Source: Candidatus Poribacteria bacterium
Lineage (GTDB): Bacteria > Poribacteria > WGA-4E > PCPOR2b
DNA length: 64,000 nucleotides
Direction of reading: 5' to 3'
NCBI GenBank assembly: GCA_965116925.1
Contig: OZ220744.1
Coordinates: 4,256,001-4,320,000, forward strand
Shown here one piece after another: positions 18,263-25,478 of this stretch (the first letter of the stretch is position 1; each line of letters begins with the position of its first letter). The notes beneath the pieces are model-generated. The model made no database searches. It was not told the origin of the DNA and was given only the letters and a program-made list of their open reading frames with translations. The position numbers and the translations under genes were made by a program.

Positions 18263-19798
18263 TTAATAACCTTCTGACTTACACCATATTCTGCAATAAA
18301 CATCTTCTATCTCATTCAATGTTGTTTTCGACACATCTCCATATTCCTGAGATTCTTTTATTGCTTTAGATACGGAGTTATTGCACTGTTTCAGCTCTGA
18401 ATCCGTTGGATTCACAATGGGCATACGTTTCAGGTAGTTTGCTGAATTATTGGCTGTCGGGTTAATCTGACGAAGCAATTTAGTTGCAAGCTCCGTGTTT
18501 AAGAAACCGAGAAAATACATCAAGAGTTGTTCATTCTTAGGGAAGATGCCAACGATGCCTTGATCAAATAATCTACCTTCAAGCAATGTGGCAGTGAGAC
18601 GTGCTGACGCTACCATTGGAACACCAATTCCCTCCGAAAAATAGTACTGAGAATTCTGAAATCGAGCCGGATTCTTTCCCGGTGTTCGATATTTAGAAAC
18701 AGCCTCCTTGCTCCAATTAACATACCATTGCGTTTGTTTTACAAAGCGAGCTGCACCCCCTCGTAATACTGGGATGAAGCAGTTGGGGCCATCAATACCA
18801 TGAAGTGGTGGCACTGTGAGATCGGAAATTTTATCAACTTCGACATCTGCAAAAGATTTTGAACGTGGTATGTCAGCGTTGGCGCGGCGTACCCAATGAC
18901 GGTCATTACCTGAGTAAAAGCCGGTACGCACGTTAGCTATATCGCCCAAAGTCAAGTTGGCTCTGCTACTGAGCGTAATTCCATCGTCTTGTGATGGTTT
19001 CACGAATTCTGCACATGGTCGCGATAGGATTTCCTTTTGACTGATATTTGTAATTAAACACCGATTTTTTGACTCATATCCTAGAGCCAATTCCATCAAA
19101 ACATTCGCATTAGCAAGGTTCTCAATTATTCTTATTTGATGCGCCCTGTGAGTGGGCAGCTTGATTAAAGAGATAATACATAGCCCAGAATACCCAAAGC
19201 TAATTCCCGGAAAGAACTTTGATGGGAACAGTACGATTTCCTCAATGGTTGATTCATTCAGTAAGGTTCTTCGTAGGAAATCGTGGCGGTGAAGCCATAG
19301 AAATGTATCCGGGATGATAAATACCAAGCGACCTTCCTGATCTAGCAAACGAAAACAATGATAAAGAATTACACCATAGGTATCGCGCACATAGAGCCCC
19401 GGATAGCACTTCTTGAGAACGGCTCTTCTATGATGAGACTGATAAGCTCCATACGGAGGATTAGCAATGATGCGGTTGAAACGGATTTCTGGCTCAAATA
19501 AGGGGGAATGTCCTAGTTCAAGCACATCCTCATGCACGACCTTGATATTTTGGAATTGCTTATATTTTTCCTTGAGCGTGGTCGATGCCTGAGGGTCAAG
19601 TTCAGATGCCCGAATTTGCGAATTTGGGGATAACCGAATAATTCCATCAATTAAGTCACCAGCTCCCGCACAGGGTTCCCATATCGAATCCGCTGCGGTT
19701 GGTTTAAGCCGAGAAACCATGTATGAAACAATATCGGGCGAATCGGTATAATGAGCTTGGAACGTATCTCTATATCGTTGAGGTCTGGGGGTTACCAT
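18263..19798 (-). CDS. N6-adenine DNA methyltransferase, gamma class (TaqI/Eco57I-like)
   Basis: Motif I WEPCAGAG precedes motif IV IANPPY; C-terminal TRD-like region; visibly more AT-rich than neighbours. Confidence 0.9.
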   Translation of the reverse strand: MVTPRPQRYRDTFQAHYTDSPDIVSYMVSRLKPTAADSIWEPCAGAGDLIDGIIRLSPNSQIRASELDPQASTTLKEKYKQFQNIKVVHEDVLELGHSPLFEPEIRFNRIIANPPYGAYQSHHRRAVLKKCYPGLYVRDTYGVILYHCFRLLDQEGRLVFIIPDTFLWLHRHDFLRRTLLNESTIEEIVLFPSKFFPGISFGYSGLCIISLIKLPTHRAHQIRIIENLANANVLMELALGYESKNRCLITNISQKEILSRPCAEFVKPSQDDGITLSSRANLTLGDIANVRTGFYSGNDRHWVRRANADIPRSKSFADVEVDKISDLTVPPLHGIDGPNCFIPVLRGGAARFVKQTQWYVNWSKEAVSKYRTPGKNPARFQNSQYYFSEGIGVPMVASARLTATLLEGRLFDQGIVGIFPKNEQLLMYFLGFLNTELATKLLRQINPTANNSANYLKRMPIVNPTDSELKQCNNSVSKAIKESQEYGDVSKTTLNEIEDVYCRIWCKSEGY

Positions 19799-20790
19799 GT
19801 CAAGTATTTGACCAAGTCGTTTTGTTCAAGGGAATTTCGGAATTGGGGACTTACATCATCCATCCAAGTAACATTTTCGTGCATCCATCCACCTAAATCA
19901 AAGCCAGAATATTCTAACACTTTCGGATAGGTTTCTGCTCCACAATAAACTTCCCAGAGGTCTGACCCCTTCAGTATTTGAAGGTAGTGGTTATTTTCAT
20001 CTTCAGGTGCTCTCACCAAGAGAAGACACCGATAATCTTCTGGCTCTATGTGTTGGTATATACTAGCAACCAGAAATAAACGGTTGGTGTTTCCTTTTTC
20101 ATTTGAGCCGAAACCGCTCTTACAATCGACTACATACCGCGTACCTTCAATTGAGAAATGCAGATCCAATTCAAGTTTAATTTCACCCGATGTGACAAGA
20201 TGCCAAACTTGGTCATAGTAGCGGAGAAGTTGTTCTTTATCTTCCCTGCTGATGTTTAACCCTTGAATAAAATCTCGAACCTCGTTGGTCAATCTTTTCC
20301 TGATTTCCTCAAATAAAGGAGGGATGAATAAGGTAACATCTTTTCGTATCGGGTAATCAAAGCAAGTTGTGACGAAAGGCTCCCAGAGTTCACCCATTCT
20401 GCGAGAAAAAGCCATGTAGTCATAGGACCATACGTCATTCCGGCTCTCAAGCATCACGACATTCGTACAGTGCATTAACAAAAGGTTGGCTCGGAGGATT
20501 GAATCCGTTTGCCAATCTTCTCGCCCGGCATTTTGCCGTATAACAGCAGCTAACTGCTGTTTTTCTTTCGCAAGTGCACGGTTAATTGCTGTCGCTCGTT
20601 GCCTAAATTGCCTTTCGCCAAACTCCTGCTTTATCTCGTTAAGATATTCGATGGCTCTGAACCTGAGATAGGAAAGCAATTCGGCTTTACGTGAGTTGAA
20701 ATCCTTGTCGACTGATATAGACATCTGCATTCGTTGTAGCAGTTTTGCGTAACGGTCACATTTTGTGCAATAGATGGCTATATTACACAA
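19792..20790 (-). CDS. Putative type II restriction endonuclease (PD-(D/E)xK)
   Basis: ELDLHF...VVDCKSG motif; stop overlaps the MTase start; true start probably near 20729. Confidence 0.65.
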   Translation of the reverse strand: MCNIAIYCTKCDRYAKLLQRMQMSISVDKDFNSRKAELLSYLRFRAIEYLNEIKQEFGERQFRQRATAINRALAKEKQQLAAVIRQNAGREDWQTDSILRANLLLMHCTNVVMLESRNDVWSYDYMAFSRRMGELWEPFVTTCFDYPIRKDVTLFIPPLFEEIRKRLTNEVRDFIQGLNISREDKEQLLRYYDQVWHLVTSGEIKLELDLHFSIEGTRYVVDCKSGFGSNEKGNTNRLFLVASIYQHIEPEDYRCLLLVRAPEDENNHYLQILKGSDLWEVYCGAETYPKVLEYSGFDLGGWMHENVTWMDDVSPQFRNSLEQNDLVKYLTW

Positions 20791-22218: not shown

Positions 22219-22250
22219 CTGAATATCCTGCGTTCTGACTATCATCGTTA

Positions 22251-22278
22251 GTAGGGAACGCAGATCTGCGTTCCCTAC
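22251..22278. repeat. 28-bp perfect palindrome (REP family C)
   Basis: gtagggaacgcagatctgcgttccctac; further copies at 24060, 32665, 35051, 40014. Confidence 0.9.
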
Positions 22279-22309
22279 TGAAATGCGTAAGTCCTAATCT
22301 GCCCATTCA

Positions 22310-24265
22310 TCACACAAAGTCCATCGGCATCGGCTTAAACTGGCACCCTTCGACAAATACTTCAAAGAAGTCAGCGGTTGTTTCCAATTCGACATGTTCA
22401 ATCCCTTTGACCAGACGCTCGATAGCCTCACGTTTCTTGCGTGAGAGGAGAACCTCCTTCGCCCCTTGTACCGCGGCATTGCCGATCTTGACGATGCGAT
22501 CTTCGTCCACCGGTGCCAAAAAACCGATCTCAATTGCATTACGAACATCCACATAGTTGGCAAAGCCACCCGCCAGATAGAGGCGACTCACGTCCGCCGG
22601 ATTGATCCCGAACTTTCGCATAACGATGAATTGACCGCAGTAATTGGCAGCCTTCGCTTGAGCTAGATTGCTAGCATCTTCGCGGGAGAAGGTGATGTCG
22701 TATTCTGGTACGATTGGTATCTCTCGCGTTTTTCTGTCCCCGAATACACCCATTTCAGTCATCCGGTCATGGCGACGGAGTTCTGCCAGTAGATCGATTA
22801 GACCGGAACCGCAAATCCCTTGGGGGGCAACGCCGCCGATTGTACTATATTCAACCTGACCGTCTTTCCATCGGATCGACTCGATCGCTTCGTCGTAGCC
22901 CGGCATCCCGTATTTAATGCCGCCGCCCTCAAAAGCGGGACCTGCTGGACAGGAAGCGGCAATCAGCCGCTCTGGGTGTCCGACCACCACTTCGGTGTTT
23001 GTGCCGACATCCACTAGCATGACGACCTCTTTCTGGGATGCGATGTCGAGTGCGACCAGATCCGCTGCAACGTCGGCACCGACATGGCTGCCGATCAATG
23101 GCAGTCCATACACCTGTGCCTTGGGGTTGGCTCGGATTCCGAGCCGCCGCGTCTTCTCAATGAGCGACGTGGTTTTGCGATCGCCGGCGTGATATTGATG
23201 TTCGATTATCGATTGGTAAGGCTTTTGACCGATGCTCTGCACATCTAGCTTAAAGAAGATGTCCCGCATCGTCGAGTTGCCGACCACGACAATCTCGTAA
23301 ATTTCTTGGCGGACAAACCCTAGTTGTTTCGCCATCTCCTGAATCTCGTGGTTGAGCGCGTTGATGACCGCCCAGCGTAACTCCCCGCCAAACTCTCCAT
23401 CATACGAAATGCGGTGCATGATGTCGCTGCCGCCGAATCGTTGTGGGTTCTCAAAGGAACTGACATGGACGCTTTCACCTGTCTCCAAATCGACCAAGTC
23501 GATGACTACTGTTGTGGTGCCGAGATCAATCGCCAAGCCGTAGATGTGACCGCGATATTTGTCAACTGCCTCATCATCATAGTAAACCATATTTTCGCGG
23601 CGCGTTACTAATGGGTCAATTTGGAGAGGTTTTTCGTGTGTGCGGGTAAGGATCTTGGGAGTACGCCGCACTGGCAGGAACTCAATATTGACATCGGCGT
23701 CCTTAACCATCGCTTGGCAGGCGAGCCGATAGTTCTCCCGCAAAAACGACTCGGCTTCGTTCCGTGGGCGCAACGCCTCCATCCCCTCTTTGATCTCTAC
23801 AATACATTCATGGCACTGTCCGGTGCGGTAGCAGGAGGTCGGCACCTGAACTGCGAGTTCATCGGCGTAATCAAAAATGGTCTTCCCGGCTGCGAGCGGA
23901 TGCTTTTTGCCGTCATGCGTTACTGTTCCTACCCCGTAGCTTACTTCGCTGTCGAGGAAAGCACCTTCGGCAGCTTCGGTTTCCCACGCAGTCCGATAGT
24001 CAATTTTATCGTCTCCACCACACAAAAGTAATTCCTCCTCTGGTGCCCCGCGAACGCTAGTAGGGAACGCAGATCTGCGTTCCCTACCCACCAAACCCTC
24101 GCTAGGCGGTTTTCGCTGGTTTCGGCACCCAAATTTAGCAGTACATTGATCGAAGCGGTTTTTGTACGGGCATCGATGCATAGATTGCACGTCGGCATGG
24201 GCAACCATGCTTGAGAACATCTCTGATATTTTATCTAAACGTTTTTGATACTCTTCTTTGCTCAT
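22310..24265 (-). CDS. Reductive activator of corrinoid proteins (RACo/RamA, ASKHA ATPase, 2Fe-2S domain) with extra N-terminal Cys domain
   Basis: SC..TGQCHEC...RLACQ ferredoxin motif, AIDLGTTT, NPQ.FG.D, HVGAD, DVGTNTE, AGPAFEG, GICGSG, LAGGF, GNAA..GA. Confidence 0.92.
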   Translation of the reverse strand: MSKEEYQKRLDKISEMFSSMVAHADVQSMHRCPYKNRFDQCTAKFGCRNQRKPPSEGLVGRERRSAFPTSVRGAPEEELLLCGGDDKIDYRTAWETEAAEGAFLDSEVSYGVGTVTHDGKKHPLAAGKTIFDYADELAVQVPTSCYRTGQCHECIVEIKEGMEALRPRNEAESFLRENYRLACQAMVKDADVNIEFLPVRRTPKILTRTHEKPLQIDPLVTRRENMVYYDDEAVDKYRGHIYGLAIDLGTTTVVIDLVDLETGESVHVSSFENPQRFGGSDIMHRISYDGEFGGELRWAVINALNHEIQEMAKQLGFVRQEIYEIVVVGNSTMRDIFFKLDVQSIGQKPYQSIIEHQYHAGDRKTTSLIEKTRRLGIRANPKAQVYGLPLIGSHVGADVAADLVALDIASQKEVVMLVDVGTNTEVVVGHPERLIAASCPAGPAFEGGGIKYGMPGYDEAIESIRWKDGQVEYSTIGGVAPQGICGSGLIDLLAELRRHDRMTEMGVFGDRKTREIPIVPEYDITFSREDASNLAQAKAANYCGQFIVMRKFGINPADVSRLYLAGGFANYVDVRNAIEIGFLAPVDEDRIVKIGNAAVQGAKEVLLSRKKREAIERLVKGIEHVELETTADFFEVFVEGCQFKPMPMDFV

Positions 24266-24337
24266 TGGTTTATTGGTGCATTAGTTCATGAAAACAATCC
24301 CAATGTTTTAACATTGGGTCAAACGGCGTAACTTTAG

Positions 24338-24366
24338 TTGATTTTGCGTATAAATGATGGTATACT
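24338..24366 (+). promoter_or_regulatory. Sigma70-type promoter inside the element
   Basis: TTGATT-17 nt-TATACT with TG in the extended -10 position. Confidence 0.6.
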
Positions 24367-24372
24367 TTTGAT

Positions 24373-24708
24373 ACGTCCAAAAGCGGGAGAATGTCACCCT
24401 TGCAGCCTTGCAAGGTCTCCCGCCTCTCCAGTGACATGGGGACTTTGGACGGGTGGCTAACCAAGCCATACTGGACGAAAACCAAGTCCAAAATTGTATA
24501 ACCGTCGCGGCGGGACACGCCGAGACGTAAAAATGCCTGTGGAGGGGCTGTAAGACCACGCTATTTTGCATGGCAAATCTCATCGAAGCAGGTATACGGC
24601 AGGGGTGCCCTTAGCGGGGCACACCCGTAAGTCCGTTAAAAACTCTCGAAGGAGATACAAAGTGATTACTAATAAGAATCCCAATGTTTCAACTTTGGGA
24701 GCGGTCAA
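24373..24708 (+). ncRNA. Putative structured RNA: 5' pseudoknot domain plus TnpB omega/reRNA-like scaffold
   Basis: Nested stems gtccaaa/tttggac, gcgggaga/tctcccgc, ccttgca/tgcaagg; tnpB 3'-end-like gcctgtggaggggctgtaagacc...gaagcagg. Confidence 0.6.
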
Positions 24709-24710
24709 TC

Positions 24711-25478
24711 CTACTCATCGTCCCAATCCTCGTCATCTTCTTCGAGGAATTTCTTTGCCAACGCCACGCATTCAAGGGCATCCTTGCCGTATCCGTCCGC
24801 CCCCATATCGTCGGCGAACTCTTGGGTCACCGGGGCACCGCCCACCATAATCTTAACATCTTCCCGGAGATCTTCATCAATAAAGGCTTCGATTGTTTTG
24901 CCCATATTCGGCATCGTTGTGGTGAGCAACGCTGACATTCCGAGCACGGGTGCCTCATGCTCTTCTACCGCTTCGATGAACTCATCGTCCGAAGTGTCCA
25001 CCCCCAAGTCGTGTACGACAAATCCTGCCCCCCGCAACATCATAATGCAGAGGTTCTTGCCGATGTCGTGGAGATCGCCCTTCACCGTTCCCATGATTAC
25101 AGTCCCGATGGGATCGATACCGGAGGCAGATAGAATCGGTTCAATATACGCCATCCCAGCCTTCATCGCTCGCGCACAGGCGAGGACTTCCGGGACGAAG
25201 ATAAAGTTCTCTCGAAACTTGATCCCAACAATCCCCATCCCTGCGATGAGTCCGTCATCCATGATTTCGAGTGCTTCGGTGCCTGACTCTAGGGCGGCTT
25301 TGGTCATCTCATCCACACCATCGTTGTCTCCGTCGATGAGTGCTGCGGCGATGTCTTGCATCTCAGGGGTGGTTTGGGCAAATGTGTTAATAGCGCGCTC
25401 CCGTTCATCGGGACGCTCAATAAACTCCTCAATTTCGTCTACGATAATTTCATTCTGAATGTCAGTAATTTCTGCCAT
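24711..25478 (-). CDS. Stand-alone corrinoid (cobalamin-binding) protein, MtaC/MetH-cap-like
   Basis: GM..VG.KF...FVPEVL cap, GTVKGDLHDIGKNL (DxHxxG), MSALLTTTM, VGGAP. Confidence 0.95.
   Translation of the reverse strand: MAEITDIQNEIIVDEIEEFIERPDERERAINTFAQTTPEMQDIAAALIDGDNDGVDEMTKAALESGTEALEIMDDGLIAGMGIVGIKFRENFIFVPEVLACARAMKAGMAYIEPILSASGIDPIGTVIMGTVKGDLHDIGKNLCIMMLRGAGFVVHDLGVDTSDDEFIEAVEEHEAPVLGMSALLTTTMPNMGKTIEAFIDEDLREDVKIMVGGAPVTQEFADDMGADGYGKDALECVALAKKFLEEDDEDWDDE

Follow-up and report, generated by a model that had tools for sequence, protein, structure and literature searches.

A protein-free IS200/IS605-derived element of Candidatus Poribacteria belongs to a diverged mobile family with a conserved omega-RNA scaffold and a knotted leader

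Between two corrinoid genes of a Candidatus Poribacteria genome lies a stretch of DNA that encodes no protein: what is it, and how could it move and keep its RNA folded without genes of its own? The stretch falls within a window of 64,000 nt (contig OZ220744.1, positions 4,256,001 to 4,320,000), to which all coordinates refer unless another contig is named; features are on the + strand unless stated otherwise. Both neighbours are host genes on the − strand, a RACo-type corrinoid activator on the left (22310–24265; Fer2, RACo middle and C-terminal domains) and a B12-binding corrinoid protein on the right (24711–25478), and the element (24283–24708) points against them.

The element, delimited by its copies, its ends and its empty sites, is a mobile, IS200/IS605-derived PATE of this lineage of sponge symbionts. 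It has no open reading frame for a transposase or nuclease; it has subterminal palindromes in common with IS605-type elements and lacks terminal inverted repeats; and its family inserts 3′ of a fixed short motif without target duplication, with empty alleles observed. In these features and in its tnpA/tnpB-type ends it resembles PATEs, as defined in Dyall-Smith 2011 (PMC3119063), and standalone omega-RNAs. The initial annotation had already seen a protein-free IS200/IS605 element without tnpA or tnpB, and the absent reading frames, related ends and copies bear this out; the two near-identical hairpins that it saw at the boundaries (24299–24318 and 24679–24700) are indeed related, as a 26-nt direct repeat with 88% identity.

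Copies and empty sites establish that the element moves. The right boundary at 24708 is exact, as a 95% identical copy in the same genome stops there before a different flank. All 16 readable relatives lack the element at the orthologous site (a 17th lies at a contig edge); their empty alleles, which had been proposed as a check, join at 24708/24709, and in 7 of them TGAA stands immediately 5′ of the right flank. Further copies and full-length tnpB parents, likewise proposed as a check, were both found in the genome, the parents with matching ends; the 6.47-Mb genome holds four mini-elements (the window copy, one at 95%, one at 76% and one more distant). Among the loci fetched, 41, spread over 9 of the 20 genomes examined from the genus, have a hairpin with an ACCAA loop beside omega stem 1, and the 35 loci with readable right ends give 34 distinct flanks, the sole repeat being one orthologous insertion. 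When the genome collection was searched with a pattern derived from the element, 30 stretches matched, all but one of them in Ca. Poribacteria records (29), and the ACCAA-plus-stem-1 pattern had no match in metagenome or viral contigs. The element is a member of a diverged, mobile family rather than a fresh one-off deletion. Its earlier description as internally deleted holds insofar as it is a deletion derivative of the tnpB type in which about 11 codons before the stop are all that is left of the reading frame, with the deletion ending ~12 nt 5′ of stem 1; the implied single event does not.

The family is varied in form. L059 (G007) is a minimal element with left end, promoter and omega scaffold, no leader, and an end that reads GTCAG; L069, L094 and L096 represent a further protein-free subtype with a leader, a different linker and no ACCAA hairpin. 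What all subtypes have in common is the omega core and the exact right end. Other deletion derivatives of tnpB elements in this genome keep different pieces (G000:C1:89686–90199, 111768–112090, 4409078 and 5743460). A short palindromic repeat of the CCCGATTTATCGGG type is inserted at recurring places in both mini-elements and tnpB elements (L001, L005, L053, L064, L066, L075 and L090) and resembles small repeats that target PATEs in Haloquadratum.

At the right end (24676–24708), a DNA guide GAAT (24676–24679), a hairpin (24679–24700) and a cleavage site TCAA (24705–24708) are present, the guide and cleavage site standing as first annotated and matching those of IS608. The left end (24283–24318) consists of an 11-nt terminal segment, the DNA guide CAAT (24295–24298) and a subterminal hairpin (24299–24318). 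Across the family, DNA guide and target covary: left guides CAAT and TAAT pair with a TGAA target in 40 of 43 left ends, and CAAG, TAAG and CATG pair with TGAC in 8 of 10. This covariation and the site of a sister copy, L053, identify TGAA as the family target and dispose of TTAG (24281–24284), which had been put forward as the left target. In IS608, the fourth letter of the guide is also paired. The IS608 ends, as described in PMC5934647, are alike in the right guide GAAT, the TCAA site and a guide tetranucleotide at the hairpin foot that sets the target; they differ in that IS608 combines GAAT with TCAA and AAAG with TTAC (PMC5934647), whereas here the left guide is CAAT and the target TGAA (CAAG and TGAC in subfamilies).

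The left junction of the window copy departs from this pattern. The usual target position, about 11 nt 5′ of the guide, reads ATTA, and an internal TGAA (24289–24292) lies merely 2 nt 5′ of the guide. The start at 24283 is taken from alignment with L053 (in the relative G014), whose identical terminal segment sits 3′ of a TGAA target, and the left end probably starts there. Because the target position lacks TGAA, and because host sequence and left end share 7 nt of microhomology, the original left junction was likely lost through a microhomology deletion. The L053 site itself is cleanly empty in the window at 22223/22224, with no duplication. Comparison of window positions 22220–22228 with L053/L127 (G014:C48) shows that this sister copy, whose left-end variant is that of the window copy, lies in another genome at the opposite end of the RACo gene, a distance of ~2 kb, which suggests a local hop.

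Who would move such an element? An autonomous tnpA–tnpB element with the same left end as the mini-element occurs in G014 (L194), and TnpA provided in trans would move the mini-element. No cognate tnpA was found in the genome of the window, where only distant Y1 proteins were recovered; for this reason, and because the left junction seems lost, the window copy is probably stranded here. Elsewhere in the window, a short palindromic repeat at 24058–24090 and 22252–22279 has very high contig depth in metatranscriptome runs and is probably REP-like, and RAYT-like Y1 genes occur at other places in the genome; at 18263–20790, motifs indicate a methyltransferase-like reading frame beside an endonuclease-like one.

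The 3′ half of the element carries an omega-RNA scaffold (24503–24708), made up of stem 1 (24503–24527), stems 2/3 (24535–24593), an extra stem of the family (24596–24636), the right-end hairpin and a GTCAA end. It joins the 3′ end of tnpB to the right end, with the guide beyond, and it has conserved stems and a 3′-end pseudoknot, the latter recognized by geometry rather than covariation. From 37 extracted rows, 27 were aligned (22 protein-free and 5 tnpB-bearing), leaving aside rows with recurrent inserts or without a pattern match. Across 45 named pairs, 96% of cells are paired and 29 pairs have changed on both sides, a result reached by 0 of 500 shuffles, with slid partners pairing at 33–43%; within the 22 protein-free rows alone, 947 of 979 cells are paired and 20 of the 45 pairs are compensated. 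The stem 1 loop GGACA (24513–24517) and the GTCAA end occur in all 27 rows and would form the three-pair pseudoknot described for ISDra2 (PMC10097598); these pairs never vary and therefore carry no covariation. The scaffold resembles the omega-RNA of ISDra2 TnpB in its origin from the tnpB 3′ end and right end, its −5 to −3 pseudoknot, its stems 1–4 and its guide from the flank, to the extent covered by PMC10097598 and PMC10278001, and differs from it in the extra stem between stem 2 and the right-end hairpin, the TGAA target and a transcript without the tnpB reading frame. The tnpB 3′-end-like guide-RNA scaffold recognized at the outset is thereby confirmed in its covarying stems and pseudoknot motifs.

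This scaffold seems to have a history apart from that of its gene. In an unrooted tree of 39 omega rows, a 100/100 branch separates the 22 protein-free rows, which are substantially diverged among themselves, from 17 tnpB rows. Among the tnpB loci scanned, the mini-type extra stem was not found, and the mini-type pattern of the leader stem P0 matched once, elsewhere in its locus; as the tree samples 17 tnpB omega regions, an unsampled parent could carry mini-type stems. Given the strong covariation, the kept pseudoknot geometry and the 100/100 branch, the omega RNA looks to have been selected without its gene.

Candidate partners for such an RNA are at hand. A PF07282 profile search recovers 26 tnpB-type loci in this genome, among them four full-length TnpBs of the cognate clade with intact D-E-D catalytic and zinc-finger motifs; these four intact genes carry the same omega-RNA fold as the mini-element, and three of them retain the left end and promoter. 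The TnpB clade is present in 10 of 10 genomes with a mini-element, five genomes without the clade have no match to the mini-element interior, and five have the clade with no mini-element detected; these genomes are kin rather than independent trials, and the co-occurrence may reflect shared exposure to TnpA alone. From the covariation, the shared TGAA motif and this co-occurrence, we infer that the mini omega-RNA is loaded in trans onto TnpB. Its predicted guide (24709–24728) is host flank that overlaps the stop of the corrinoid gene on the other strand, and TGAA followed by this guide is the empty allele seen in relatives. No match of TGA(A/C) plus guide longer than 7 nt was found in this genome for the window copy, and none of nine elements tested has a self-target longer than 11 nt. 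The guide simply records the insertion site; with 34 distinct flanks among 35 copies, no meaning of its antisense orientation to the corrinoid gene, noted at the outset, is supported.

Transcription would start within the element. The sigma70-type promoter proposed at the outset (TTGATT-17-TG.TATACT, 24338–24366) has an extended −10 and lies 6–8 nt 5′ of the leader; taken by itself the match is within chance (1 found; shuffle mean 1.2), but none of the 27 aligned copies departs from the −10 letters T-G-x-T-A-T-x-x-T. This promoter would drive an RNA of roughly 340 nt plus flank. Four metatranscriptome runs from three studies were counted neither way because they consist of contigs, which give no strand, ends or level: two have no cover over 24332–24636, one has three short pieces of 88–95% identity inside the element and one bridges the empty allele.

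The 5′ half of the predicted transcript is less familiar, and the initial annotation had missed both its knot and its ACCAA hairpins. It is modelled to open with a three-way junction, the bulge of which is paired to the loop of a hairpin, in a leader knot (24373–24451) made of a closing stem P0 (24375–24381 with 24444–24450), P1 (24383–24390 with 24416–24423), hairpins P3 (24398–24415) and P4, and a kissing pair between the P1/P3 bulge (24391–24397) and the P4 loop (24431–24437). The same fold stands 5′ of 21 of the 26 tnpB loci of the genome (20 by pattern and 1 by eye), in four protein clades. Since pairs could not be counted reliably on a MAFFT alignment of the full set of leaders, we used a model built from 14 tnpB leaders only, with the kissing pair left out. 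It has a single match in the window, at 24373–24467 (E 1.5e-7), and across the phylum it hits 36 of 101 genomes. After two of 68 rows were dropped as antisense or truncated, 55 distinct leaders were available for the unmodelled kissing pair, which has at least six Watson–Crick pairs in 43 of the 55, across 25 different bulge cores, compared with 16 of 1,824 mismatched combinations. The 5′ strand of the leader has at least two partner sites in 34 of 49 non-mini leaders, compared with 151 of 1,408 cross pairs, and in 21 of 24 mini leaders, compared with 77 of 262 such pairs, and in distant families both tandem partners change along with it. The leader is not required, as L059 has promoter and omega scaffold without it. 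Autonomous tnpA–tnpB elements (L191–L197 and L211–L213) have tnpB straight after tnpA and no leader knot, which marks tnpB-only elements.

The leader resembles known RNAs in parts of its architecture. The ZTP riboswitch also pairs a bulge with a hairpin loop, and HDV-like ribozymes share the nested P1–P2–P3 order; the leader knot differs from both in having no conserved core letters and no Rfam match. Searched with Rfam 15, the leader and omega parts reach no family at gathering threshold (within the element SAM-VI scores highest, with 20.7 bits where its threshold is 57.5, at E 0.99), and the leader has no match even at E up to 2–5. The invariant unpaired core of a ligand-binding riboswitch or self-cleaving ribozyme was not found; across families the pairings are kept and the letters turn over. 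SAM-VI, HDV-like, hammerhead and ZTP readings are rejected by these scores and because no core letters are fixed. Descent from the 3′ end of tnpA is rejected as well, despite a conspicuous local similarity (best local score 40.5 against a shuffle maximum of 42; 1 of 82 leaders scored in a profile test). We know of no kissing pair or tandem partner in the 5′ UTR of IS200 tnpA. That UTR likewise folds at the 5′ end of a transcript from the IS200/IS605 group, where it restricts translation, and it can also work as an RNA in its own right (PMC4513863, PMC5435999 and PMC12594629), but it heads tnpA, whereas the leader knot heads tnpB and has no sequence or Rfam link to it. No description of the knotted leader was found in the part of the literature searched; the extended data of PMC10055086 and non-Rfam motif catalogues may bear on it.

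Leader knots also occur away from tnpB. Several without tnpB after them lie 3′ of TTGGCAC, which we take to be a sigma54-type motif (G000:C1:322171, 338630 and 3117397; L145–L148 and L153); some stand beside activator-like genes, and they are conserved across genera, which hints at a possible adoption of the knot by the host. Three others (G000:C1:5833001, 2911453 and 5221834) stand, respectively, before a long non-TnpB reading frame, before an apparent broken anti-sigma-antagonist gene and without a clear reading frame.

Between leader and scaffold lie two hairpins with ACCAA loops. The first (24453–24469) is missing in some subtypes; the second (24473–24489) occupies the place of the start codon in tnpB parents, provides with its 5′ arm the second site to which the leader 5′ strand could pair, and in this genome is found only in the four mini-elements. 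Its stem is paired in 108 of 108 cells with one compensated pair. The 25-codon mini-ORF annotated here (24453–24530) does end in AAGHAET, the C-terminus of one cognate TnpB in this genome; its start, frame and length vary among 27 copies, several of which have no start, and a peptide is rejected.

Taken together, we consider it probable that the element is a non-autonomous PATE that exploits the TnpA and TnpB of its family, equipped with promoter, leader and omega scaffold. TnpA from elsewhere would mobilize it, and its promoter would yield the RNA. TnpB of the cognate clade would trim the 5′ part, for which the self-processing reported in PMC10278001 is a precedent, and bind the scaffold. It would then cut TGAA plus flank, the empty allele, and we propose that recombination therefore copies the element back; PMC10055086 provides a precedent for such cutting and homing. 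The leader knot would most likely shield the 5′ end of the transcript. In tnpB parents, where the second partner lies just 5′ of the start codon, the leader would gate translation as its 5′ strand slips onto that partner; in the mini-element, which has lost the start codon, the ACCAA hairpin would lock up the second partner, and the RNA would go untranslated. Energy models do not support the slip, as folding without the pseudoknot places the 5′ strand on the first partner (probability 0.72–1.00), not the second, in 6 of 6 cases, and the switch is hypothetical.

An unlikely alternative is that the RNA acts as a decoy, binding TnpB or a leader-binding factor, with leader and ACCAA loops titrating a reader of the tnpB leader and altering the level of active TnpB, and with empty-allele cutting secondary. 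It would account for a leader kept with compensatory changes though no reading frame follows, and for the unpaired ACCAA loop, which has 7 of its 9 letters fixed across 27 copies beside a drifting spacer and which most copies carry twice. ACCAA hairpins are nevertheless missing from one subtype (L069) and the leader from another (L059), and it is the omega core and exact right end that all share. Another reading is a two-part parasite, in which the 3′ half takes TnpB and the 5′ half is an undescribed transcript-start switch (the kissing-loop knot with its two tandem co-evolving partners) joined to ACCAA loops that soak up the factor reading the tnpB leader; we regard this, too, as improbable, and if it were true the mini-element would steer production of its own helper nuclease.

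We doubt still more that the element is a neutral deletion remnant riding on TnpA, its folds inherited from tnpB parents and decaying slowly. Deletion derivatives of many shapes do occur in this genome (89686–90199 and 111768 onward), and several kissing-pair bulge sequences are found in both minis and parents, so that exchange is possible. Slow decay fits poorly, however, with the pairing and 20 compensated pairs among minis, with a single branch that parts them from parents, with a mini-type extra stem and P0 lacking counterparts in place in the tnpB loci scanned, and with one orthologous mini copy that is 96.9% identical between two species, compared with 84–94% in four flank blocks. That the host has adopted the element to act on the corrinoid operon, as an antisense RNA or a gene for a small peptide, is suggested by the position between two co-oriented corrinoid genes, the opposing orientation and the sister copy that flanks the far end of RACo in a different genome, but is very improbable given the site empty in 16 of 16 relatives, the 34 flanks in 35 copies and the unconserved mini-ORF.

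Gene-less omega-RNA elements as such are already published: PATEs often encode omega-RNAs acted on in trans (Meers preprint, PMC10055086), and standalone omega-RNAs have been shown to work in trans (Altae-Tran 2023, PMC10691335). Compared with the PATEs described in these sources, the present elements form a diverged single lineage that has kept a promoter, ACCAA hairpins and a knotted leader not yet catalogued. What the locus contributes is the covariation of guide and target, the origin of protein-free copies in one branch, the test for tandem partners and the apparent loss of a junction. With matched parents, a TGAA target and empty alleles, the family offers a natural setting in which to test the borrowing of TnpB published for gene-less elements, and its dozens of naturally recoded scaffolds provide a covariation map of possible use for omega-RNA studies in this TnpB clade. 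Less familiar is the leader, a specific, testable RNA with a predicted switch that would bear on the control of tnpB expression.
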